This document shows positions 18,082 through 27,263 of a DNA stretch of 28,401 nucleotides, piece by piece. Position numbers and translations under genes: made by a program. This stretch comes from Gammaproteobacteria bacterium (GTDB taxonomy: Bacteria > Pseudomonadota > Gammaproteobacteria > Steroidobacterales > Steroidobacteraceae): positions 1 to 28,401 of the forward strand of contig JANXYA010000049.1 of NCBI GenBank assembly GCA_025350345.1, given 5' to 3'. Each line of letters starts with the position of its first letter. Position 1 is the first letter of the stretch. Under the pieces are notes generated by a model. It had not been told where the DNA came from, searched no databases, and was given only the letters and a program-made list of their open reading frames with translations.

Positions 18082-18155
18082 CGCCCGCGGGCTGTAAACG
18101 ATCTGTAGGTACCCGGTAAGCCACCGGCAAGTAGCCCTGGGGCATCGTTGGCCCC

Positions 18156-19754
18156 ATGGAAACCCAAGCAATCAGCCCGATTTCAAGGACCGCAGGCCAG
18201 GCTCGCGCCGCGCGTGCCCTGCTTCCGGTGTTCTGCGCCAAGGCCGCCTGCGCCGCCGTTTCGCTGGCGCTGCGCCTGGTCCGCAGCCACTTCCAGCTGT
18301 GGCGACTGTGCGCCCGCCACTACCCGGAGGCGCTCAGTCGCCTGGCCGCCTTGATGGCGTACCTGAACTGCCGGCTGGCGACGGCTACCGTGCCGGCGTA
18401 CCAGCGGTTTCTCGCAGCACAGCGCGTCCCGGCCGACACCGCGGCACTGTCGGAGTTTCCGGAGACGACGCGCGAGAACTACGCCGGCGTGTACACGCTG
18501 GAAAGTCAGTGCCGGCAGGGCCGCTGGGACTTGCCCGGCTCGACCGTGGACGAATCCTCCGGCTCGACGGGGCAGCCCTTCAACTGGCTGCGCTGCGCGG
18601 CGGAGCTCGAAGACATCCATCGCAACATCGGCAACTACATCCGTCTCGAATTTCCCACCGAGCGGTTGTTCTGCATCAACGCATTCTCGATGGGAGCCTG
18701 GGCGACCGGCGTCAATTTCACCGCCGCGATGCGCCGCGTCGCGATGGTCAAGTCGGCCGGGCCCGACGTGCCCACCATCATCGCCACGCTGCGGGCCTTC
18801 GGGCCGAAGTACGACTACCTCATCACGGCCTACCCGCCCTTTCTCAAGCACCTGTGCGACGAGCTCGAGACCTCCGGACTGCCGCTCAGCGACTACCGGC
18901 TGTACGGACTGGTGGCGGGCGAGGCGATGACCGAGGCGCTGCGATCACACCTGCAGAAGCGCTTCATCAAGGTGCTGTCGGGGTACGGTGCCTCCGATGT
19001 GCAGGTCGGCATCGGCGGCGAGACCGATTTCACCGTCGCGCTGCGCCAGCGCATCGCCGCGGATGCCAGGCTGCGCTACGCGATCCTCGGCGAAGGGGAG
19101 GACCGGATCCCGATGATCTTCCAGTACAACCCCTGCGAAAGCTACATCGAGGTCAACACGCGCGATGAGCTCATCTTCACGCTGGGCAATACCTCGGTGT
19201 GCTGCCCGAAGCTGCGCTACAACCTGCACGACGAAGGCATGGTCAGGTCCTTCGGCGAAATCGCAGCGACGCTCGCACGGTGCGGGGCCGCCGCCGGAGG
19301 TGCCGCAACGGCCATGCCGCGCGCCAGCATGCGCATGCCGCTGCTGTTCCTGTTCGGGCGGCGCGACAGTACGGTCTCGGTCATGGGTGCGAACATCTAC
19401 CCGCAGGACATCGAGCACGGCCTGTATCGCAATCCGCAGCTGGCGCAGCGCATCCACGGCTTCGTGCTGGCGCTCGAGGAGCACAGCGACCTGAGCGGCA
19501 GCGTCACCGTGCACGTGGAGTGGCGCGACCAGCCCTCAGCCGCGTCCAGCGCAGCCATCGCCGCGGAGCTCGAAGCGGGCGTCTGCACCTACCTGCAGGC
19601 CAGCAACCGCGACTTTGCCAATGCGGCGCGCGAGCTCTCGCAGGCCACGCGCATCCGCGTGAACCTGCACAAGATGGGCACCGGGCCTTTCGCCGCGCGC
19701 CGCGCGAGCATCAAGAACCGCTACCTGCTGCGCGCCGCGCCGGCGACGGTGTAG
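18156..19754 (+). CDS. PaaK-like adenylate-forming (ANL superfamily) enzyme
   Basis: VPAYQRFL, ESSGSTGQP (A3 P-loop), AGEAMTE, YGASD, RYNLHDEG, GRRDSTVSVMGANIYPQDIE (A8); start uncertain because no clear RBS. Confidence 0.85.
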   Translation: METQAISPISRTAGQARAARALLPVFCAKAACAAVSLALRLVRSHFQLWRLCARHYPEALSRLAALMAYLNCRLATATVPAYQRFLAAQRVPADTAALSEFPETTRENYAGVYTLESQCRQGRWDLPGSTVDESSGSTGQPFNWLRCAAELEDIHRNIGNYIRLEFPTERLFCINAFSMGAWATGVNFTAAMRRVAMVKSAGPDVPTIIATLRAFGPKYDYLITAYPPFLKHLCDELETSGLPLSDYRLYGLVAGEAMTEALRSHLQKRFIKVLSGYGASDVQVGIGGETDFTVALRQRIAADARLRYAILGEGEDRIPMIFQYNPCESYIEVNTRDELIFTLGNTSVCCPKLRYNLHDEGMVRSFGEIAATLARCGAAAGGAATAMPRASMRMPLLFLFGRRDSTVSVMGANIYPQDIEHGLYRNPQLAQRIHGFVLALEEHSDLSGSVTVHVEWRDQPSAASSAAIAAELEAGVCTYLQASNRDFANAARELSQATRIRVNLHKMGTGPFAARRASIKNRYLLRAAPATV

Positions 19755-19759
19755 CCGCC

Positions 19760-21445
19760 ATGCTACGCCGCGCCACTTTGTCTGCAGCCCTCCCCGGCGT
19801 TGCCCTGGCGCTGGTGTTGCTGGCCGCCTGCCGCGGCCCGCAGGTTTACCTGGCGGCCACGTCGGCGGACCTGCAGGCCAATCCGGTCGCGGGCCTGGGC
19901 GACGCCGACGCCGGGCGGATGCGCTTTCTGTTCGATGACCTCAATGGCCTGAGCACGCAGACCCTGCAGACCAACGCTTTCCCCTGGAAGGTCGTCACCA
20001 CCGCGTTCCTGCTGGAACGGCAATCGCACCCGCTGACGCCGGCCGATCTGGACGGCCTCGGCGCCGTATTCCAGGAGTTCGGCTTCATCACACCCGCGGG
20101 CATCGCCAACTGGCCGGCCGGCCAGCCTGCACCGCACTTTGCACGGCCCATGGGAATTACCGCCGGCACCATCAGCAGCCCGGTGCTGGGATTCAGGCTG
20201 GAAGTGGCCAACGTGACTTGTGCGGCCTGTCATGCGGGCGTGAGCTACGACGCGCAGGGCATGCCACAGGCGCAAGTCTGGCTGGGCCTGCCCAACACCT
20301 CGGTCAACTACCAGGCCTTCGGGATCGCTGTGACGCGCGCGCTCGGCGCCGCAGTCCGTGATCCGCAGCGATTCCTCGCGGCCCTGCAGGCGCTCTACCC
20401 GCAGCTGGACCGGCGCGAGTTTCACACGATTGCCGGGCGCGTGCTGCCGGCGCTGTCCCGCCACCTGGCCCAGATCGCGGCGACGACGCCGGACTACCCG
20501 TTGGGATTTCACGGCGGCTCGAGCGGCTTCATCAACGGGCTCGGCGCTGCCAAGCGCATGTTCGGGGTGCTGCCGGCTGCGCTCGTCCCCGCCGATCGGG
20601 GCTCCACCTCGGTGCCGGATCTGGCCAGCCTGCGGCTGCGCTCCTCGGCCTTCTGGGATGGCGGCGATGCGCCGGCCGGACAGGCGCGCTTCGAGGAACG
20701 GACCGCCGCCGAGGCGACAGAGGCGCATTACCAGGATTTCGCACCGATCATGAACGCGGTGACGACGCCGGTCATGGGCATCGAGCCCAAGGTCGCGATC
20801 CGCTCGCTGCCGCGCGTGCGGCAGATCGCGCAGTTCCTGCGCGGCTATGCGCCGCCGAAATTTCCCGGAACGATTGATCGCGAGCGCGCGCTGCGCGGCC
20901 GCGAAATCTTTGCGCACTCCTGCAGCCGCTGCCATGGCGAGTACAGCGCAGGCATCGACGAGGTGAGCCTGGAGCGCTTTCCCAATCGCCTGGTCCCGGT
21001 CGAGCGCATCGGCACCGATCCTCTGCGTGCGCAGCTCGTCACAGCCAATCTGGTCGCGGCCTTCAAGCGTTCGCCATTCGCGGCGGGTGTCGACGCGGCG
21101 GCGACCGGCGGCTACGCCGCACCGCCGCTGGATGGCCTTTGGGCTACGGCGCCGTACCTGCATAACGGCAGCGTACCGACGCTGTGGGACATGCTGCACC
21201 CGGCCTCGCGGCCGCAGCGCTTCTGGGTCGGCGGCCACGCCCTCGATTTCTCCCGTGTCGGCATCGCCCTGCAGCCCGATGCCGATGGAGTGTGGGTCTA
21301 CGCCCCCGGCTATCGGCCGTGGGCACAACCGAGCCTCTACGACACGCGCGAACCCGGCCAGTCCAACCAGGGCCACGCCTTTCCCTTCGAGCACCTGACC
21401 GAAGCGGAGAAGACCGACCTGCTCGAGTACCTGAAACTGCTTTGA
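19760..21445 (+). CDS. Di-heme c-type cytochrome lipoprotein, RoxA/MauG/CcP-like
   Basis: Lipobox LLAAC; CAACH (20219-20233) and CSRCH (20921-20935); IGTDPLRA; APPLDGLWATAPYLHNGSVPTL (PYLHNGSVP at 21152-21178); 561 aa. Confidence 0.85.
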   Translation: MLRRATLSAALPGVALALVLLAACRGPQVYLAATSADLQANPVAGLGDADAGRMRFLFDDLNGLSTQTLQTNAFPWKVVTTAFLLERQSHPLTPADLDGLGAVFQEFGFITPAGIANWPAGQPAPHFARPMGITAGTISSPVLGFRLEVANVTCAACHAGVSYDAQGMPQAQVWLGLPNTSVNYQAFGIAVTRALGAAVRDPQRFLAALQALYPQLDRREFHTIAGRVLPALSRHLAQIAATTPDYPLGFHGGSSGFINGLGAAKRMFGVLPAALVPADRGSTSVPDLASLRLRSSAFWDGGDAPAGQARFEERTAAEATEAHYQDFAPIMNAVTTPVMGIEPKVAIRSLPRVRQIAQFLRGYAPPKFPGTIDRERALRGREIFAHSCSRCHGEYSAGIDEVSLERFPNRLVPVERIGTDPLRAQLVTANLVAAFKRSPFAAGVDAAATGGYAAPPLDGLWATAPYLHNGSVPTLWDMLHPASRPQRFWVGGHALDFSRVGIALQPDADGVWVYAPGYRPWAQPSLYDTREPGQSNQGHAFPFEHLTEAEKTDLLEYLKLL

Positions 21446-21458
21446 CAGGCAAGCCACC

Positions 21459-22580
21459 ATGCACTTCCAGCCCATCACCACGCGCCGTGAACTGACCGAG
21501 TGGCTCGATCTGACGCGGCGGATCTACCCGACGCCCCTGTACGTGCCGCCGATCAGGCAACAGCTCGTGAAGTACTTCGAACAGCAGGGTGACGGCGGCT
21601 CGACGCACTGCGCCTTCTTCGCGGTGCGCGATGCGAGCGGCGCCATCGTGGCGCGCACCACCGCGCACTCGAATGCCGCACTCGACGAGAAGTTCGGCCT
21701 GCCGCTGCAGCTGTTCGGATTCACGGAATTCATCGAGGATCCGGCCGCGTTTGCCGCGCTCATCCAGGGACTGCACCGCCAGGGCAGCTATGCCGGGCGC
21801 CACGCGCTGTTTGGCCCCTGCAACCTCCTGCCCAATGCCTACGGCGGCGTGCTCACGGCCGGGTTCGACCAGCGCGGCATCCTCGACAGCGTCTACAACC
21901 ACGCCTACTACGCCGACTACTACCGCCAGGCCGGGTTTCGCGAGCGCTTTGCCTCGGCCACCTACATCTGCGACAGCGTGCAGAGCGGGCCCGACGCCAC
22001 GGCCGTGTTCCGCTTTGACGACGGGCGAATCGCCGGCGAGGGGCTGGAGATCCACTACGCCGACCGCCGCCGCTTTGGCGAACAGATACCGCTGTTTCAC
22101 CAGCTGTTGAACACCTGCTTTGCCGAGCGGCCCTACTACACCAGCATCTCCCTGCCCGAGTTGCATGAACGCATGGCCGAGCTGGTGCACATCATGGACG
22201 AGCGGCTGCTCATGTACCTCACCCGCCATGGCCAACCCGTCGCCTTCGCCATCTGCCTGCCCGACATCTCGGAATTCCTGGCGAAGGTCGACGGCAACCT
22301 GAACCTGTACAACCAGCTGCGGCTGCTGCTCACGCGCCACCGCTATCGGCGCGACGCGCTGTTCGTGGTCGCCGGCGTCGTCGCCAGCTGCCGGGGCCTG
22401 GGCTACCAGGCCTTGCTCCAGCGGCAGCTGTTTCGCAACCTGCGTGCCCACGGCTATCGCGCGATCCGCTCCACCTATGTCGAGGACGACAACGTCGCGG
22501 CCCGCACGCAGTTCCTCAGGATGGGCGGACGCGTCATGCAGCGCCTGAACTTCTTCCAGCTCGAGGTTGCCGGTGACTGA
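21459..22580 (+). CDS. Tandem-GNAT acyltransferase, YghO/bacterial ceramide synthase-like
   Basis: IY...YVPP, FGFTEF, LFGP, GF, N..YY..YY..AGF, LLN..F.....Y.S, GQPVAFAICLPDISE.L.KVDG.L, YVEDDN match the recalled layout of this ~370-aa family. Confidence 0.72.
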   Translation: MHFQPITTRRELTEWLDLTRRIYPTPLYVPPIRQQLVKYFEQQGDGGSTHCAFFAVRDASGAIVARTTAHSNAALDEKFGLPLQLFGFTEFIEDPAAFAALIQGLHRQGSYAGRHALFGPCNLLPNAYGGVLTAGFDQRGILDSVYNHAYYADYYRQAGFRERFASATYICDSVQSGPDATAVFRFDDGRIAGEGLEIHYADRRRFGEQIPLFHQLLNTCFAERPYYTSISLPELHERMAELVHIMDERLLMYLTRHGQPVAFAICLPDISEFLAKVDGNLNLYNQLRLLLTRHRYRRDALFVVAGVVASCRGLGYQALLQRQLFRNLRAHGYRAIRSTYVEDDNVAARTQFLRMGGRVMQRLNFFQLEVAGD

Positions 22581-23607
22581 CTTCGCAGCCCTGCGGGAGC
22601 GCGAGTGGCTGGCGCGGCGCGCGCCCTCGGCCCACAACACCCAGCCCTGGCTGCTGCACTACCAGGCCGACGCCATCCGCCTGGACTTCGACCCGCGCCG
22701 GCACCTGGTGCAATCGGATCCGGGACACCGCGACCTGCTCCTGTCACTGGGCACGTTCGTGGAATCGCTCCTCATCGTGGCAAGCGATGCGGGCCTGGGG
22801 CTGGCGTTCGAGGCTGCGATCGATCTCGAGCGGCACCGCATCGGCTGGTTCCGCCGCAGCGAGGACCTCTACCCCACTGCCTTCGTTCCGCAGGACCTGC
22901 TGCGCCGCCGGACCAGCCGGCTGCCGCTGACTTCGCCGAAGCTTGCTCCGGCTGCCCGCGAGGCCCTGCATTCGCAGCTGCGCGCCGCCGAGCGGCTCGA
23001 TCTGCTGCGCGGCGAGGAGGTGCGCGACCTGCTCGGCCCGGCCGATCGCCACATGCTGGATGAACCCGGCATAGCCGCCGAATTGCGGCAGTGGTTGCGC
23101 CACGATGGCGATGCCCCCGACGCAATGGCGGCCGACTCGACGGCGGCCGATGGACTGAGCAGCGCGTGCCTGTCGCTGAGCGCGCTGGAAGGGCGCGTGC
23201 TGGCGGCCCTGCTGAGCCCGCCGGTGCATCCCTGGTTCCGGCGCCTGCACCTCGCCGCGTTGCTCAATGCCCTGACGCCGCGACTGGTCCACGAGGACAG
23301 CACGCTGCTGGCCCTGCGCGCCCGGGGCAGGGAGCCGGCAGATGTGCTCGAGGCCGGGCGCAGCCTGATGCGATTGTGGCTCGAGCTGGGCCGGATGGGC
23401 CTGTACGTTCAGCCACTGAGCCAGATCCTGGATTTTCCGGAGACGCAGGCGCGATTGGCAGAACGCCTGCGTGTTGGTGCGGACGAGCACCTGTTGTGCC
23501 TGTTCCGTACCGGCCATTCGCCACCGCCCGCGCTGTCGCGACGACTGGGCGAGACGGCGGCGCAGCGCGCATCGCTGCGTGCCGCCGCGGGCGCGGACCT
23601 GCCGTGA
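22573..23607 (+). CDS. Acg-like nitroreductase-fold protein
   Basis: ARRAPSAHNTQPW, LRRRTSR, GRSLMRLWLEL..MGLYVQPLSQ, LCLFRTGH; GTG 22573 with GAGG RBS, overlapping the upstream stop. Confidence 0.8.
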   Translation: MTDFAALREREWLARRAPSAHNTQPWLLHYQADAIRLDFDPRRHLVQSDPGHRDLLLSLGTFVESLLIVASDAGLGLAFEAAIDLERHRIGWFRRSEDLYPTAFVPQDLLRRRTSRLPLTSPKLAPAAREALHSQLRAAERLDLLRGEEVRDLLGPADRHMLDEPGIAAELRQWLRHDGDAPDAMAADSTAADGLSSACLSLSALEGRVLAALLSPPVHPWFRRLHLAALLNALTPRLVHEDSTLLALRARGREPADVLEAGRSLMRLWLELGRMGLYVQPLSQILDFPETQARLAERLRVGADEHLLCLFRTGHSPPPALSRRLGETAAQRASLRAAAGADLP

Positions 23608-25787
23608 AGCCGCCGCGTCCTGATGGAACCCACGGCGCCGGGCGCCGGGGCACGCTGCTGCTGTGGCTGCTGGTCCTCATCGCTTCTTTGCCCCTCGCCT
23701 CGGGGCTCGAGGCGCGGCTGGAAACCGCTGCGCGCGTCACCGGCTCGGATCATGAGCGCGTCGCGCAGCTCCTGCGCAGCGAATTCGACAGCGCCTTCGC
23801 CGACCCGCTGATCCTGGTGGCCAGCGGCATCGCCCCCGGCGATGCGATCACGGCCGAGCAGCTGAGCCATCGACTGACCGCGGCCCTGGAAGTCGATCCG
23901 CACGTCGCCGGACTGCTCAGTTACGAGAACACGCACGATGTGCTGTTCCTGGGCGCCAGGGGACAGGGTGCCGTCATACTCGTGCGGCCGAAGGATCCGG
24001 CGGGCTCGATGGACGCGACGCTCACGCAGCTGCGCGCGCTCACCGCGATGCTGGAGCGTGAGCTGCGTGGCTCTGCCCCGGCGCTCTCGCTCCAGTGGAC
24101 GGGCGCGGCGGCACTCAATGCCGACCTGCGGCGCGTCAGCGCGACGGAAGCCCAGGCGGCCGAGGCGCGGGTGATGCCGCTCGTCCTGCTGCTGCTCCTG
24201 CTGGTGTTCCGCTCGGTGCCCGCGGCGCTCCTTCCGGCGATCGCCGGCATGGTCTGCATTCCGATCGCACTCGGGATCGCCGCGCTCGCGAGCCGCGTCC
24301 TGCCGCTCTCGATCGTGCTGATCAACGTCGTCTCCATGCTGGGACTCGGACTCAGCATCGACTATGCCCTGCTGATGGTCGGCCGCTTTCGCGAGGAGCT
24401 CGCCGCCGGTCACGACGGCCCCGCGGCGGCCCGGCGGACGCGTCGCAGCGCCGGTCATACCATCCTGCTGTCGGCAGCCGGCATTGCCGTGGGATTCGCG
24501 GCACTGCTGCTCGTGCCGATCAACGAGATCCGCTCGATCGCGGTGGGTGGACTGATCGTGCTGGCCGTCGCCGTGCTGCTGGCCTGCACCCTGCTGCCGG
24601 CCCTGCTCGCCAGGCTCGGCAGCCGGATCAATGCCTGGCCCGTGCCGTGGCCCAGGCGCTGGTCGCTGCCCCACGGTTCCTGGAGCCGCGCGACGGGCGC
24701 ACTGTTCCGGCGCCCCGCGCTGTTCCTGCTGTGTGGACTGGCGCCGCTCCTGTTGCTCGGCGTGCACGCCCTGGATCTGCGCATCAGCCTGCCGCGCGGG
24801 CAGTGGCTGCCGCGCTCCGCCGCCTCGGTACGCGCGATGACACAGCTTCAGGCCATGGGCCAGCCAGATCTGTCACAGCTGATTGAAGTGCTGGTCGGGC
24901 TGCCCGCCGGGGTGAGCGTGGATGATCCGCGCGGGCGCGCCCTGCTCGCGGATGTCTCGCGCCAGCTGGGCCGTGACGCCAGAGTCGGCGCGGTGCGCGA
25001 GCTCAGCGCTGCCGCCGTCCTGGCCGAGGCGGCGGGCGTCCCGGTCACGAAGGCGCTGCCCCAATTGCACCGCATGTTTGCCAGCCGTGACCTGCGCACG
25101 GCCCTGGTCGCGCTCATTCCGGCGGCCGGGACCGACAGCATCGCACTGACCGAGCTGGTACGCGACATCCGCGCCGGGCGCAACTTCGTGCTGCCCGAGA
25201 GCGCCGCCTCGATCCTGGTCGGCGGCCTGCCTGCCCTGAACGCCGACTACGAAGACTCGGTTCGCTCGCACAGTCCAGCGGTCGTCGCCACCGTGCTGGG
25301 CGTCAGTTTCCTGATGCTCCTGATCGGCTTCCGTTCCGTGGCGATCGCCCTGAAGGCCGTGCTGCTGAACGTGATTTCGGTGGCGGCCTCACTGGGCGCG
25401 CTCGTCTGGGTGTTCCAGGACGGCGTCTTTCCCAATATTCCCATCCTCGCCTTCTGCATCGTGTTCGGGCTGAGCATGGACTACGAGGTGTTCCTGTTCC
25501 ATCGGGTGCTGGAATCCCACCGGGCCGGCCGCACGGACGAAGAGTCGATGGACGATGGCCTGCGACTGACCGCGAGGCTGATCGCCAGCGCCGCACTCAT
25601 CATGATCGCGGTGTTCGGCGCCTTCTGCCTGGGCGAGTTCCTGTTCATCAGGATGCTCGGCTTCACGCTCGCCGTAGCGGTATTGATCGACGCGACGCTC
25701 GTGCGGCTGCTGCTCGGTCCGGCGATATTTGCGCTGGCCGGACGCTGGAACTGGTGGCCCGGGCCGCGCCTGGACCGCCTGCGCTAG
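23604..25787 (+). CDS. MMPL (RND superfamily) transporter
   Basis: Two internal repeats with GLGLSIDYALLMVGRFREE and FGLSMDYEVFLFHRVLE (paired Asp-Tyr), ITG/TARLIASAALIM, DATLVRLLLGPA; about 11-12 TM; GTGA overlap with the upstream gene; 727 aa. Confidence 0.92.
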   Translation: MKPPRPDGTHGAGRRGTLLLWLLVLIASLPLASGLEARLETAARVTGSDHERVAQLLRSEFDSAFADPLILVASGIAPGDAITAEQLSHRLTAALEVDPHVAGLLSYENTHDVLFLGARGQGAVILVRPKDPAGSMDATLTQLRALTAMLERELRGSAPALSLQWTGAAALNADLRRVSATEAQAAEARVMPLVLLLLLLVFRSVPAALLPAIAGMVCIPIALGIAALASRVLPLSIVLINVVSMLGLGLSIDYALLMVGRFREELAAGHDGPAAARRTRRSAGHTILLSAAGIAVGFAALLLVPINEIRSIAVGGLIVLAVAVLLACTLLPALLARLGSRINAWPVPWPRRWSLPHGSWSRATGALFRRPALFLLCGLAPLLLLGVHALDLRISLPRGQWLPRSAASVRAMTQLQAMGQPDLSQLIEVLVGLPAGVSVDDPRGRALLADVSRQLGRDARVGAVRELSAAAVLAEAAGVPVTKALPQLHRMFASRDLRTALVALIPAAGTDSIALTELVRDIRAGRNFVLPESAASILVGGLPALNADYEDSVRSHSPAVVATVLGVSFLMLLIGFRSVAIALKAVLLNVISVAASLGALVWVFQDGVFPNIPILAFCIVFGLSMDYEVFLFHRVLESHRAGRTDEESMDDGLRLTARLIASAALIMIAVFGAFCLGEFLFIRMLGFTLAVAVLIDATLVRLLLGPAIFALAGRWNWWPGPRLDRLR

Positions 25788-25806
25788 CCCCGCTGGCGCC
25801 GCCGCC

Positions 25807-26427
25807 TCAGCGGCTGGCCGGACGATCAAGCAGGCGCACATGGCGCGGCTGCGCCGCCACACGCGCCAGCCACGCGCGAATCGCGGGGAACGGGGCGAGC
25901 TCGAGCCCAGCCTCCTCCGCCACGTGCGTGTAGGCATACAGCGCGATGTCGGCAATGCTGTAGCGCTCGCCCACGAAGTAGCTGCGCGTGGAGAGCTGCC
26001 CCTCCATCACCGCGAGTGCCGCGCGACCACGCTCCTGGCGTTGCGGCAGTTCGGCGCGGCGCGGATGGTCCGCGGGCAGGTGGTGCATGATGAAGCGCGG
26101 CGTGGCCACGTTGGGCTCGTGGCTGTATTGCTCGAAGAACATCCACTGCAGCACCTGCGCGCGCGCCAGCCGCTCGGTGGGCAGGAAGGCCGTGCCCTCG
26201 GCCAGATAACACAGGATGGCATCCGATTCGGCCAGGCATTGCCCGTCCTCGAACTCCAGCGTCGGGATGCGGCCGTTCGGATTCTTGGCCAGGAACTGCG
26301 GCGTGCGCGTCTCACCGCGCGTGATGTCGAGTTCGACGTAGCGGTAAGGCTGCTGCAGCTGCGCCAGCAGCAGGCGGATCTTGTAGCCATTGCCGGAATC
26401 GAGAAAGTCGTAGAGCGTGTACATCAT
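25807..26427 (-). CDS. Glutathione S-transferase family protein
   Basis: SGNGYKIRLLL, KNPNGRIPTL, LAESDAIL.YLAEG, QWMFFEQYSHEP, SIADIALYAYTH. Confidence 0.93.
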   Translation of the reverse strand: MMYTLYDFLDSGNGYKIRLLLAQLQQPYRYVELDITRGETRTPQFLAKNPNGRIPTLEFEDGQCLAESDAILCYLAEGTAFLPTERLARAQVLQWMFFEQYSHEPNVATPRFIMHHLPADHPRRAELPQRQERGRAALAVMEGQLSTRSYFVGERYSIADIALYAYTHVAEEAGLELAPFPAIRAWLARVAAQPRHVRLLDRPASR

Positions 26428-27263
26428 TCAGTCCCTATTGGTGTGTCGGCACGCGCGCCCCATTCCGCCCAGGACCCGTCATAGAGGGCGCCCTCGGGCA
26501 GGCCGGCCACGGCCAGGCCGAGGTTCAATATCGCCGCCGTCAGGCCCGAGCCGCAGCTCGTGATCACGGCGCTGTGTTCATCCACGCCGGCGCGCGCGAA
26601 GCGCTCGCGCAACTCCTCGCGCGGGCGCAACGTCTGTTCAGGGGTCAGCAGCTCGGCATAGGGCAGGCTGCGGGCGCCCGGTATGTGCCCGCTGCGCAGC
26701 CCCGGCCTCGGCTCGCTCACCCTGGCATGGAATCTATCGGCGGAACGGGCATCGAGCACGAGTTCACGCCCCGAGCGGAGATTGTCCAGCAGGTCCCCCA
26801 TCCCACGGAGCAATCCGGCGCGCAGCGCGGTCCTGTACACGGCCGGAACGGGCGCAGTGATCGCACCCTCCTGCAGCGCGCGTCCTTCGCTGCGCCACTT
26901 CGGCAATCCGCCGTCGAGCACCGCGACCTGCTCGTGACCAAACAGCCGCAGCATCCAGCGGCCGCGGGCCGCGGAGAAGATGCCGAGCTGGTCATAGCAT
27001 ACGATGCGACTTGCATTAGAGACGCCCAGTTCCCCGACCAGCTGCGCGAAGCGGCCCGCAGCGGGCACCATGTGCGGGAGTCCCGATTCACGATCCGCGA
27101 TCAGGTCGATATCGAAGAAACGCGCCCCCGGAATGCGCCCCGCCGCGAACAGCCCGCGGGCATCACGCTTGTCCCCAGGCATGTACCACGTGGCATCCAG
27201 TACCACGAGGTCCGGGTCCGCCAGCCTGGCGGCGAGCCATTCCGTGCTGACGATGGGATCCAT
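26424..27263 (-). CDS. sseA: 3-mercaptopyruvate sulfurtransferase (tandem rhodanese)
   Basis: MDPIVSTEWLA, VLDATWYMP, IPGARFFDID, LDGGLPKW, LDARS..RF, GHIPGA, active-site SCGSGLTAA, YDGSWAEWG. Confidence 0.95.
   Translation of the reverse strand: MDPIVSTEWLAARLADPDLVVLDATWYMPGDKRDARGLFAAGRIPGARFFDIDLIADRESGLPHMVPAAGRFAQLVGELGVSNASRIVCYDQLGIFSAARGRWMLRLFGHEQVAVLDGGLPKWRSEGRALQEGAITAPVPAVYRTALRAGLLRGMGDLLDNLRSGRELVLDARSADRFHARVSEPRPGLRSGHIPGARSLPYAELLTPEQTLRPREELRERFARAGVDEHSAVITSCGSGLTAAILNLGLAVAGLPEGALYDGSWAEWGARADTPIGTE

Follow-up and report, generated by a model that had tools for sequence, protein, structure and literature searches.

Homology to the bacterial ceramide synthase bCerS (Caulobacter CCNA_01212/CC_1154), taken together with Spt and CerR, has been used to predict which bacteria make sphingolipids (PMC11334938). 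In E. coli BL21, yghO (ECD_02850) is one of the genes of the spt cluster and corresponds to CC_1154 (PMC9386255). YghO is also 52% identical to the bCerS-type GNAT of G027, a genome of the same order as the one described here, in which that gene adjoins a true Spt; on these two grounds YghO is a bCerS orthologue. The other systems that bear on our locus are those of the N-acyl-oxazolones: OxzAB of Pseudoalteromonas rubra, and TyzACB (Rv2336-Rv2338c) and TrzAS (Rv1356c/Rv1355c) of M. tuberculosis. TyzACB comprises an acyltransferase, a nitroreductase-superfamily FDO desaturase and an ATP-dependent carboxylate activator, with an MmpL gene adjacent (PMC10404671), and TrzAS is a further precedent for such an enzyme set (PMC12856293). 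For the FDO-B enzymes, by comparison, no substrate is known, and they have not been connected with the synthesis of oxazolones (Grigg et al., PMC10404671).

We analysed a stretch of 28,401 nucleotides (the window) from a Steroidobacteraceae metagenome-assembled genome (MAG) that is 72.5% complete, here termed G000. The gene of interest, the window GNAT (P0001), is the third of a five-gene cassette (Table 1).

Table 1. Features of the cassette in the window.
Feature	Position	Strand	Remarks
Five-gene cassette, 7.7 kb	18108..25805	+	Precise insertion relative to congeners
PaaK-family (ANL) adenylating enzyme, 532 aa	18156..19754	+	Extra N-terminal helical region of ~100 aa
RoxA-like di-haem cytochrome c peroxidase/oxygenase lipoprotein, 561 aa	19760..21445	+	
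Tandem-GNAT N-acyltransferase, bCerS/YghO fold, distinct clade	21459..22580	+	Open reading frame of 373 aa
Acg-family flavin-dependent oxidase (nitroreductase superfamily)	22573..23607	+	Start GTG 22573 or TTG 22567; overlaps GNAT stop
MMPL/RND-type lipid exporter, 727 aa	23604..25787	+	GTG start overlaps Acg stop by 4 nt

The sequence-only reading had placed the window GNAT in the YghO/bCerS tandem-GNAT family. No Pfam or NCBIfam model scored over its cut-off (the best was GNAT PF00583, E 0.068), a sequence search of PDB chains returned chance matches only, and a protein-atlas search returned generic 'N-acetyltransferase' clusters only. Direct comparison by BLASTP aligns the protein end-to-end with E. 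coli YghO (E 2e-21, 21% identity) and with the bCerS-type, Spt-linked GNAT of G027 (E 5e-29, 26% identity), covering ~97% of its length. More than 200 full-length homologues exist at ~45% identity. The AF2 model (pLDDT 87.7) is a tandem GNAT, and its two top matches among Swiss-Prot structures, found with Foldseek, are the Caulobacter 'Bacterial ceramide synthase' A0A0H3C8X0 (TM 0.87/0.84) and YghO (TM 0.85/0.82), with the tandem-GNAT fold shared over the whole length. The next Swiss-Prot family, the mycothiol synthases, scores far lower (TM ~0.6), and the family placement is thus borne out by a wide margin. Within the PDB the top fold matches are also tandem GNATs, namely MAB_4324 (7q3a), the clavulanate-pathway CBG protein (2wpw) and the mycothiol synthase MshD (1ozp). 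These have the same two-GNAT-domain architecture, but they reach a TM of only 0.54-0.65 at 12-15% identity, are shorter (290-340 aa) and use acetyl-CoA. No FeeM or AHL-synthase match occurs among the top 50 fold matches. The C-terminal GNAT domain has a motif-A-like stretch, R312-G-L-G315-Y-Q (clade consensus Q-G-x-G-Y), in which the final position of the pattern Q/R-x-x-G-x-G/A is not G/A, although the GNAT fold itself is present. Judged from the predicted structure, the window GNAT shares the bCerS/YghO fold, and probably, like bCerS, uses a thioester as acyl donor and a primary amine as acceptor.

Sharing the fold does not make the window GNAT an orthologue of bCerS or YghO. Here bCerS was represented by its Swiss-Prot AlphaFold entry, matched via Foldseek, and by two Spt-linked GNATs of the same order (L014:8581-9720:- and L015:8566-9780:-). 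The window GNAT is 21-26% identical to the YghO/bCerS-type proteins, compared with 52% identity between YghO and the G027 gene. In a family tree of 94 rows (IQ-TREE 'quick' setting, unrooted, with SH-aLRT support only), it falls in a 43-row clade with SH-aLRT 100 that takes in every member with known PaaK/Acg context, while YghO and the two Spt-linked GNATs form a trio, also with support of 100, nested in the opposite half of the tree. A profile of the clade scores 551 bits on the window GNAT and more than ~280 on its own members, but 109-134 bits on bCerS/YghO. At 67 of 88 clade-conserved positions bCerS/YghO carry a different residue; many of these positions are polar (H70, R139, D143, D247, R337, E342, H361). 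The remaining 21 conserved residues, including R66, G119-P120, N126, N218, P268 and N345, are common to both groups. Finally, bCerS and YghO are proteobacterial or from Bacteroidota, whereas the clade of the window GNAT is mainly actinomycete.

The sequence-only reading had also remarked that the operon contains neither a class I/II aminotransferase (Spt) nor an SDR/epimerase, and indeed we found neither there. The search of the wider genome that it proposed gave the same outcome. The alpha-oxoamine synthases of G000 are only Kbl and a partial BioF. On the Spt models, the cut-offs of which are 500-670 bits, G000 reaches 313 at most, while G027 and G033, used as positive controls, reach 624 and 562. 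No CerR-like gene was found in G000 using a CerR-like query from the same order. Because G000 is only 72.5% complete, the absence of Spt there rests partly on its congeners: none of 24, many of them >95% complete, has an Spt over cut-off, and no homologue belonging to the clade of the window GNAT is present in 24-30 congeners. Indeed, G000 alone among 301 genomes of the order has a protein scoring >150 bits on the clade profile. The two genomes of the order that do have Spt carry next to it a different, YghO-like GNAT (52% identical). Among actinomycetes, none of five complete genomes carrying the clade has an Spt over cut-off.

What does accompany the clade was surveyed in its best 80 species-genome loci, all of them from Actinomycetota. 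The gene order is a PaaK-type adenylating enzyme (present in 75/80 loci), a small 154-aa DUF4188/ABM-like oxygenase (79/80), the GNAT and, directly downstream of it in 79/80, an Acg-type flavin oxidase; the clade is never beside spt, acpR or cerR. Fusions of the GNAT to the Acg-type oxidase occur in at least 10 50%-identity clusters (P0123, P0126, P0127, P0147, P0151, P0152, P0157, P0159, P0161 and P0166), and fusions of the 154-aa protein to the GNAT were also found. The di-haem protein is in none of the 80 actinomycete loci, where the 154-aa protein fills its slot, and it occupies the same slot as in the window on three metagenome contigs (those of P0018, P0007 and P0005). In the 80 loci no MMPL gene adjoins the cassette. 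In Yinghuangia, the PaaK-type orthologue is 46% and the Acg-type orthologue 40% identical to that of the window; the latter matches the NCBIfam Acg model at E 5e-51, below the 199-bit cut-off. Identities of 46%, 47% and 40% between the partners in the cassette and the window's genes suggest co-inheritance. Two genes of 623 aa and 1233 aa upstream in Yinghuangia were considered as cassette members and rejected, each being present in 3/80 loci. We found nothing useful in the literature on DUF4188.

These results also alter how the partner of the window GNAT should be described. The sequence-only reading had named an adenylating enzyme, and such an enzyme is indeed present. It overlooked, however, the Acg-type oxidase downstream, which is the tightest partner of the GNAT and is fused to it in many lineages, the adenylating enzyme being the looser of the two. 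Similarly, its suggestion that the fold had been repurposed holds in that the clade is separate and no Spt or CerR was found, but the repurposing is ancient and clade-wide rather than local to this genome. It follows that a good structural match, or a moderate sequence match, to bCerS/YghO need not mean ceramide synthesis, and that membership of the clade, with PaaK/Acg neighbours in place of Spt, is a simple discriminator.

The other genes of the cassette fit known families to differing degrees. The adenylating enzyme matches TIGR02155 PaaK weakly (E 4.8e-9, 35 bits against an equivalog cut-off of 646), and is thus not a phenylacetate-CoA ligase proper. Its AF2 model (pLDDT 80) has the ANL two-domain fold and matches PaaK1 (2y4n/2y27, E 8e-21) and, in Swiss-Prot, PaaK (E 3e-20), IaaL and CapK; a P-loop-like stretch, D132-E-S-S-G-S-x-G-x-P141, is invariant in the alignment. 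Its PaaK-family relatives include ligases that form amides directly (IaaL, fumarate-DAP ligase) as well as ClxA. The di-haem lipoprotein scores 160 bits on NF040606 (cut-off 150) and matches PF21419 (E 2e-21); it carries a lipobox signal, LLAAC, and two CxxCH motifs, one at residue 154 and one at residue 388. Over its full length the flavin oxidase matches the model 'Acg family FMN-binding oxidoreductase' (NF047509, E 2.3e-42), at 145.6 bits and so under the cut-off of 199; its match to the Rv1355c family is at E 1e-21. The exporter matches PF03176 MMPL (E 8e-71), and the MmpL3 and HpnN models match too.

In the congeners G013 (85-86% nucleotide identity) and G023, window positions ~18107 and ~25806 are directly adjacent. 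The inserted block includes the MMPL gene. Inspection of the borders by eye showed no direct repeats, tRNA, integrase or mobility genes, and no foreign composition was seen in the cassette, both GC (69.0%; genome mean 67.1%) and GC3 being within the genome's range. From the precision of the insertion and its lack in close congeners, we conclude that the cassette was horizontally acquired. An open reading frame at 25729-26484 (+) was considered as a sixth gene of the operon and rejected, because the conserved flank starts at ~25806 and the actual gene there is 25807-26427 (-).

Our preferred explanation is that the window GNAT forms the amide in a conserved pathway of four enzymes, and belongs to a separate, mainly actinomycete clade of the bCerS fold that is not tied to sphingolipid synthesis; we put the probability of this explanation as a whole at roughly 0.6. 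Given that this separate branch consistently occurs with an acid-activating enzyme and an Acg-type oxidase, the product is probably an N-acylated lipid rather than ceramide. The PaaK-type enzyme would spend ATP to make either the acyl donor (acyl-AMP or acyl-CoA) or the activated carboxylate of the N-acyl product. The GNAT, acting as a cytoplasmic tandem-GNAT N-acyltransferase, would then N-acylate an amine that is common in the cell, with an amino acid as the likeliest candidate; as neither a carrier protein nor an amine-making gene is encoded in the cassette, this acceptor is a guess. The Acg-type flavin oxidase, coupled and often fused to the GNAT, may desaturate or oxidise the N-acyl product, and a second oxygenase would oxidise it further, this being the small ABM-like protein in actinomycetes and the periplasmic di-haem lipoprotein here. 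In the Gram-negative host the MMPL pump could deliver the amphiphile to the periplasm, the site of the di-haem enzyme. We infer the substrates, the order of the steps and the product; the analogy with TyzACB and TrzAS would make the last an oxazolone-like or N-acyl-dehydroamino-acid lipid. Separately, it counts against this model that the tandem-GNAT fold also serves aminoacyl-tRNA-dependent transferases and acetyltransferases, and that the flavoprotein, which scores under the NF047509 cut-off, resembles the FDO-B (Acg/Rv3131) enzymes described above as having no link to oxazolones.

The most direct challenge to this explanation is that the window GNAT is a genuine ceramide synthase, that spt and cerR are among the 27% of the genome missing from the MAG, and that the operon modifies and exports ordinary ceramide. 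Such a view could appeal to bCerS and YghO being the best structural matches, to the completeness of the MAG (only 72.5%), to the adenylating enzyme AasR of the Caulobacter sphingolipid locus, and to the presence of the pathway in some genomes of the same order. We nevertheless consider it very improbable, given that true orthologues across classes retain 52% identity where the window GNAT has 21-26%, that it sits in a separate clade with support of 100, and that its gene is within a 7.7-kb insertion not found in close congeners. Nor do the genomes at hand favour it: the 24 congeners (many >95% complete) have neither an Spt over cut-off nor a family member, the best 80 clade loci are all from actinomycetes, the five complete carrier genomes have no Spt, and G000 has no CerR-like match.

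Two further explanations keep the cassette together but give it a different role. One is a detoxification or resistance module, in which the GNAT acetylates or acylates the amine of a xenobiotic or antibiotic (as in Eis or MshD-like enzymes), the nitroreductase-fold protein reduces a nitro group or quinone, and the MMPL protein is an efflux pump. Eis and aminoglycoside-type acetyltransferases do appear in the fold list, at lower rank, nitroreductase-superfamily enzymes and RND pumps are frequent in resistance, and the cassette was gained horizontally. Yet the MMPL gene is not part of the actinomycete core, and two constant members, the PaaK-type ligase with its ATP dependence and a dedicated oxygenase, fit biosynthesis better than detoxification. 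The GNAT-flavoprotein fusions moreover imply channelling of one substrate, and the flavoprotein is of the Acg/FDO type, whose characterised members TyzC and OxzB are oxidases and not NAD(P)H nitroreductases (PMC10404671). We therefore regard a detoxification role as unlikely. We are similarly doubtful that the GNAT acts as transferases of the Fem/MprF/Sbb17 type do, depending on aminoacyl-tRNA or modifying a peptide or protein, and gives a small peptide-like product to which the PaaK-type enzyme ligates an acid directly. IaaL and fumarate-DAP ligase, of the PaaK family, form amides directly without a GNAT, so that the GNAT here could serve some other function, and FemX, MprF and Sbb17/Sba18 are found among the fold matches (ranks 16-49). 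These matches reach a TM of only 0.37-0.45, however, against 0.85-0.87 for bCerS/YghO, the Q/R-x-x-G part of the motif-A-like stretch is typical of users of CoA-thioesters, and the residues listed above as common to bCerS/YghO are conserved.

Returning to the preferred explanation of a pathway to an N-acylated lipid, the best analogy for the cassette is with TyzACB and TrzAS, its own parts not being homologous to theirs. Like these systems and OxzAB, it combines an N-acyltransferase, a nitroreductase-superfamily flavin oxidase and one ATP-dependent carboxylate activator. The FDO is likewise coupled to the acyltransferase, as its neighbour in 79 of the 80 loci and as one polypeptide with it in at least 10 cluster representatives; oxidases fused to a partner enzyme are common in both. 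The M. tuberculosis systems and the window cassette also both have an adjacent MmpL gene. Every part, however, comes from a different family or subfamily. TyzA and OxzA are AHL-synthase/FeeM-like, whereas the cassette employs a tandem GNAT of the bCerS fold; their oxidase is FDO-A, whereas ours is Acg/Rv3131-like (FDO-B), and closer to that than to the Rv1355c type; and their ATP enzyme is ThiF/E1, whereas the sole ATP-using member of the cassette is a PaaK-type ANL enzyme. Unlike them, the cassette also has an extra oxygenase (ABM-like or di-haem) as a fixed member.

The cassette may conceivably be a fourth route, put together independently, to lipids of the N-acyl-dehydroamino-acid or oxazolone type, with the GNAT in place of TyzA, an Acg/Rv3131-type (FDO-B) desaturase, a PaaK-type adenylase in place of the ThiF cyclase and an extra tailoring oxygenase, although we hold this more specific proposal only tentatively. 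No ThiF-type cyclase is in the cassette, and the nearest match to PF00899 in the five complete carrier genomes is at least 80 kb away, so that an oxazolone end product would need cyclisation by the PaaK-type enzyme; in the literature covered we found no precedent for such an enzyme as a cyclase.

The proposal bears in particular on Acg, Rv3131 and Rv3127, the DosR-regulon 'nitroreductases' of M. tuberculosis, which are FDO-B. The cassette oxidase fits the Acg model over its full length, if under the curated 199-bit cut-off, but unlike these proteins, which are stand-alone, without assigned substrate and without GNAT or PaaK neighbours (PMC10404671), it lies in a conserved operon and is repeatedly fused to its GNAT, and so offers a testable biochemical context for Acg-type flavoproteins. 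If the oxazolone-type proposal is true, the Acg family of mycobacterial dormancy 'nitroreductases' would gain its first substrate class, and bCerS-fold enzymes would prove to be general lipid-amide synthases rather than sphingolipid-specific. The cassette is found in actinomycetes that can be cultured, among them Micromonospora, Nonomuraea, Embleya and Dactylosporangium. Being short (4-5 genes) and self-contained, it offers practical access to a class of N-acylated metabolites that has probably not been described before.

The tandem GNAT P0001 is encoded third among the five closely spaced genes of a plus-strand operon, which are listed in the table below together with two sphingolipid clusters from the same order. 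Since the operon contains neither a class I/II aminotransferase nor an SDR/epimerase, the sequence-only reading was correct in describing a locus without a serine palmitoyltransferase (Spt)-type aminotransferase or an SDR/epimerase, in which the GNAT is partnered by an adenylating enzyme. A 251-aa ORF that seemingly follows the MMPL gene (25729-26484, plus strand) was rejected as spurious, the conserved flank beginning at ∼25806; the real gene past this point is a 206-aa ORF (25807-26427, minus strand) common to congeners.

Features of the operon, and sphingolipid clusters of two same-order genomes
Feature	Position	Strand	Remarks
PaaK-like adenylating enzyme	18156-19754	+	
RoxA-like di-haem cytochrome c lipoprotein	19760-21445	+	LLAAC lipobox; CxxCH at residues 154 and 388
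Tandem GNAT P0001, 373 aa	21459-22580	+	
Acg-family nitroreductase-fold flavoprotein	22573-23607	+	
MMPL transporter	23604-25787	+	
Sphingolipid cluster L014	G027:C155:42000-58208		YghO-like bCerS and Spt included
Sphingolipid cluster L015	G033:C53:23000-41000		YghO-like bCerS and Spt included

Curated profiles do not recognise P0001 (best match GNAT PF00583, E 0.068). It can be aligned over its entire length to E. coli YghO (E 2e-21, 21% identity), and its AlphaFold2 model, built with 36 homologues as input, is a tandem GNAT (pLDDT 87.7, pTM 0.85). The two best Swiss-Prot model matches are YghO (TM 0.85/0.82, E 2e-30) and the Caulobacter vibrioides 'Bacterial ceramide synthase' (bCerS) A0A0H3C8X0 (TM 0.87/0.84, E 1e-28), while the next family, mycothiol synthase, reaches a TM of only ∼0.6; among solved structures, the model matches the tandem GNATs MAB_4324, CBG and MshD. 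The resemblance to YghO and bCerS proposed in the sequence-only reading is real. Also among the fold matches, at ranks 8 and 30, is M. tuberculosis BioF2 (P9WQ84/P9WQ85, 771 aa), annotated as an alpha-oxoamine synthase, the N-terminal half of which aligns to the tandem GNAT with a TM of about 0.49. If that annotation holds, BioF2 would combine Spt-like and bCerS-like logic in one chain, which would hint at an ancient link between this fold and the acylation of alpha-aminoketones. A further protein, P0155 (784 aa), carries two complete tandem-GNAT units (residues 3-370 and 399-782) in a single chain.

YghO and bCerS belong together as orthologues, in a group that does not include P0001. Two same-order genomes, G027 and G033, encode P0001 homologues at 24-26% identity, that of G027 being 52% identical to E. 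coli YghO. Both are located within complete Caulobacter-type sphingolipid clusters, with an AMP-binding AasR-like enzyme, a NAD-epimerase resembling ceramide reductase (CerR), LptF/G, a DAG-kinase-like gene and a CDP-alcohol transferase; Spt lies 7-9 kb away, scoring 624 and 562 bits on NF047599 (curated cut-off 500 bits). In a maximum likelihood tree of 94 rows, the trio of YghO and these two Spt-linked genes has a support of 100, and P0001 falls in the opposite half of the tree, within a distinct 43-row clade that also has a support of 100. With a profile of this clade, P0001 reaches 551 bits and clade members exceed about 280, against 109-134 for bCerS/YghO. At 88 clade-conserved positions, bCerS/YghO are identical in 21 (including R66, G119-P120, N126, N218, P268 and N345) and differ in 67, many of them polar; the differing polar residues would line a different pocket. 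The superfamily as a whole comprises 4768 clusters (50% identity) at E <= 1e-3.

The alternative is that P0001 is nonetheless the true bCerS of its host, with spt elsewhere in the genome, and the incompleteness of the metagenome-assembled genome (MAG; 2.2 Mb, 410 contigs, 72.5% complete) of which the window is contig C16 leaves room for this. However, typing every PF00155 match in the MAG revealed only two alpha-oxoamine synthases: a Kbl, which its own model scores at 637 bits, and a BioF at the end of a contig. Both score no more than 313 bits on the Spt model, far under the cut-offs, and they are the only matches (34-37% identity) to the Spt query. A same-order CerR-like query had no match in the MAG. 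In 24 congeneric genomes, many of them >95% complete, neither an Spt above the cut-off nor a GNAT superfamily member at E <= 1e-5 was found; the MAG alone among 301 genomes of the order exceeds 150 bits with the clade profile. Nor do five complete actinomycete genomes carrying the clade show an Spt-level match (<= 339 bits). We therefore consider it very unlikely that P0001 is a true bCerS whose spt lies elsewhere.

Comparison with two congeners, G013 (85-86% nucleotide identity) and G023, in which the sequences flanking ∼18107 and ∼25806 are contiguous, demonstrates that the five genes are a precise 7.7-kb insertion. The inserted cassette has no atypical composition, and inspection of its borders by eye showed neither repeats nor mobility genes. 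The closest relatives of the window, at 47-53% identity, are on metagenome contigs only. In species-representative genomes, the 80 best loci all come from Actinomycetota (including Actinomadura, Nonomuraea, Embleya, Dactylosporangium and Micromonospora), and have a near-invariant order of PaaK-like enzyme (75/80), 154-aa protein (79/80), GNAT (80/80) and Acg-type flavoprotein (79/80). Identities of 46%, 47% and 40% between the partners and the genes of the window suggest that the module has been inherited as a unit; the MMPL gene is inside the inserted block and outside the actinomycete core. The 154-aa protein is DUF4188/Monooxy_af470/ABM-like, a candidate small oxygenase, and its slot is held by the di-haem protein in the window and its closest metagenome relatives. 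Both versions thus fill this position with an oxidative enzyme, probably through non-homologous replacement.

Among 50%-identity cluster representatives there are at least 10 GNAT-Acg fusion proteins, five fusions of the 154-aa protein with the GNAT, and one triple fusion. Read-through artefacts are an unlikely explanation, given that the adjoining genes normally overlap out of frame, and from the GNAT-Acg fusions we conclude that the flavoprotein is functionally the closest partner of the GNAT. The adenylating enzyme (model pLDDT 80) matches PaaK1 and PaaK2 (E 8e-21), and is related to IaaL and other amide-forming ligases, as well as to CapK and ClxA. Its N-terminus (18156-18450) has ∼100 extra residues, modelled with good confidence as long helices, that have no counterpart in PaaK (alignments begin at residue 53-58) and are conserved in actinomycete orthologues (e.g. 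W49, A68, C72 and an invariant V79-P-A-Y82).

The closest functional precedent for the cassette is the N-acyl-oxazolone pathway, in which TyzA/TrzA carry out acyl-CoA-dependent N-acylation of Tyr or Trp, a nitroreductase-superfamily flavin-dependent oxidase (FDO; TyzC, or the FDO domain of TrzS) desaturates the N-acyl product, and a ThiF-type enzyme performs ATP-driven cyclisation (PMC10404671; PMC12856293); the tyz genes adjoin mmpL9 (PMC10404671). The cassette likewise combines acyl transfer with an FDO and a single ATP-dependent enzyme for carboxylate activation, but draws these three activities from other families and adds an oxygenase. It contains no ThiF, and none was found within 80 kb of it in the five complete carrier genomes. 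While only the architecture is established, for substrates, step order and product we infer, from the three shared activities, a scheme in which the GNAT would N-acylate an amine common in the cell, with an amino acid as the probable acceptor. Desaturation or oxidation of the N-acyl product by the Acg-type oxidase would follow, and the role of the PaaK-type enzyme would be either to provide the acyl thioester or to adenylate the N-acyl acid. In this host, MMPL may export the product, which would meet the periplasmic di-haem enzyme. We are cautious over this scheme mainly because, according to Grigg et al. (PMC10404671), Acg-type (FDO-B) enzymes lack both a known substrate and a link to oxazolones. 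The separate clade, the lack of an Spt-level or CerR match in the MAG and the conserved gene context support the earlier interpretation that the fold was repurposed: P0001 belongs to a clade of bCerS-fold acyltransferases committed to a different, widely conserved, hitherto uncharacterised pathway.

The orthology of YghO and bCerS also touches on E. coli itself. In BL21, yghO (ECD_02850) is the counterpart of CC_1154 inside a complete spt cluster (PMC9386255). In K-12 MG1655 (L010:9044-11341), yghO abuts IS5 and is listed as a 'putative DNA-binding transcriptional regulator'. Judged by homology and the published cluster (PMC9386255), K-12 yghO is a ceramide-synthase gene left over from a sphingolipid cluster that E. 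coli B strains retain intact, and its annotation looks wrong.
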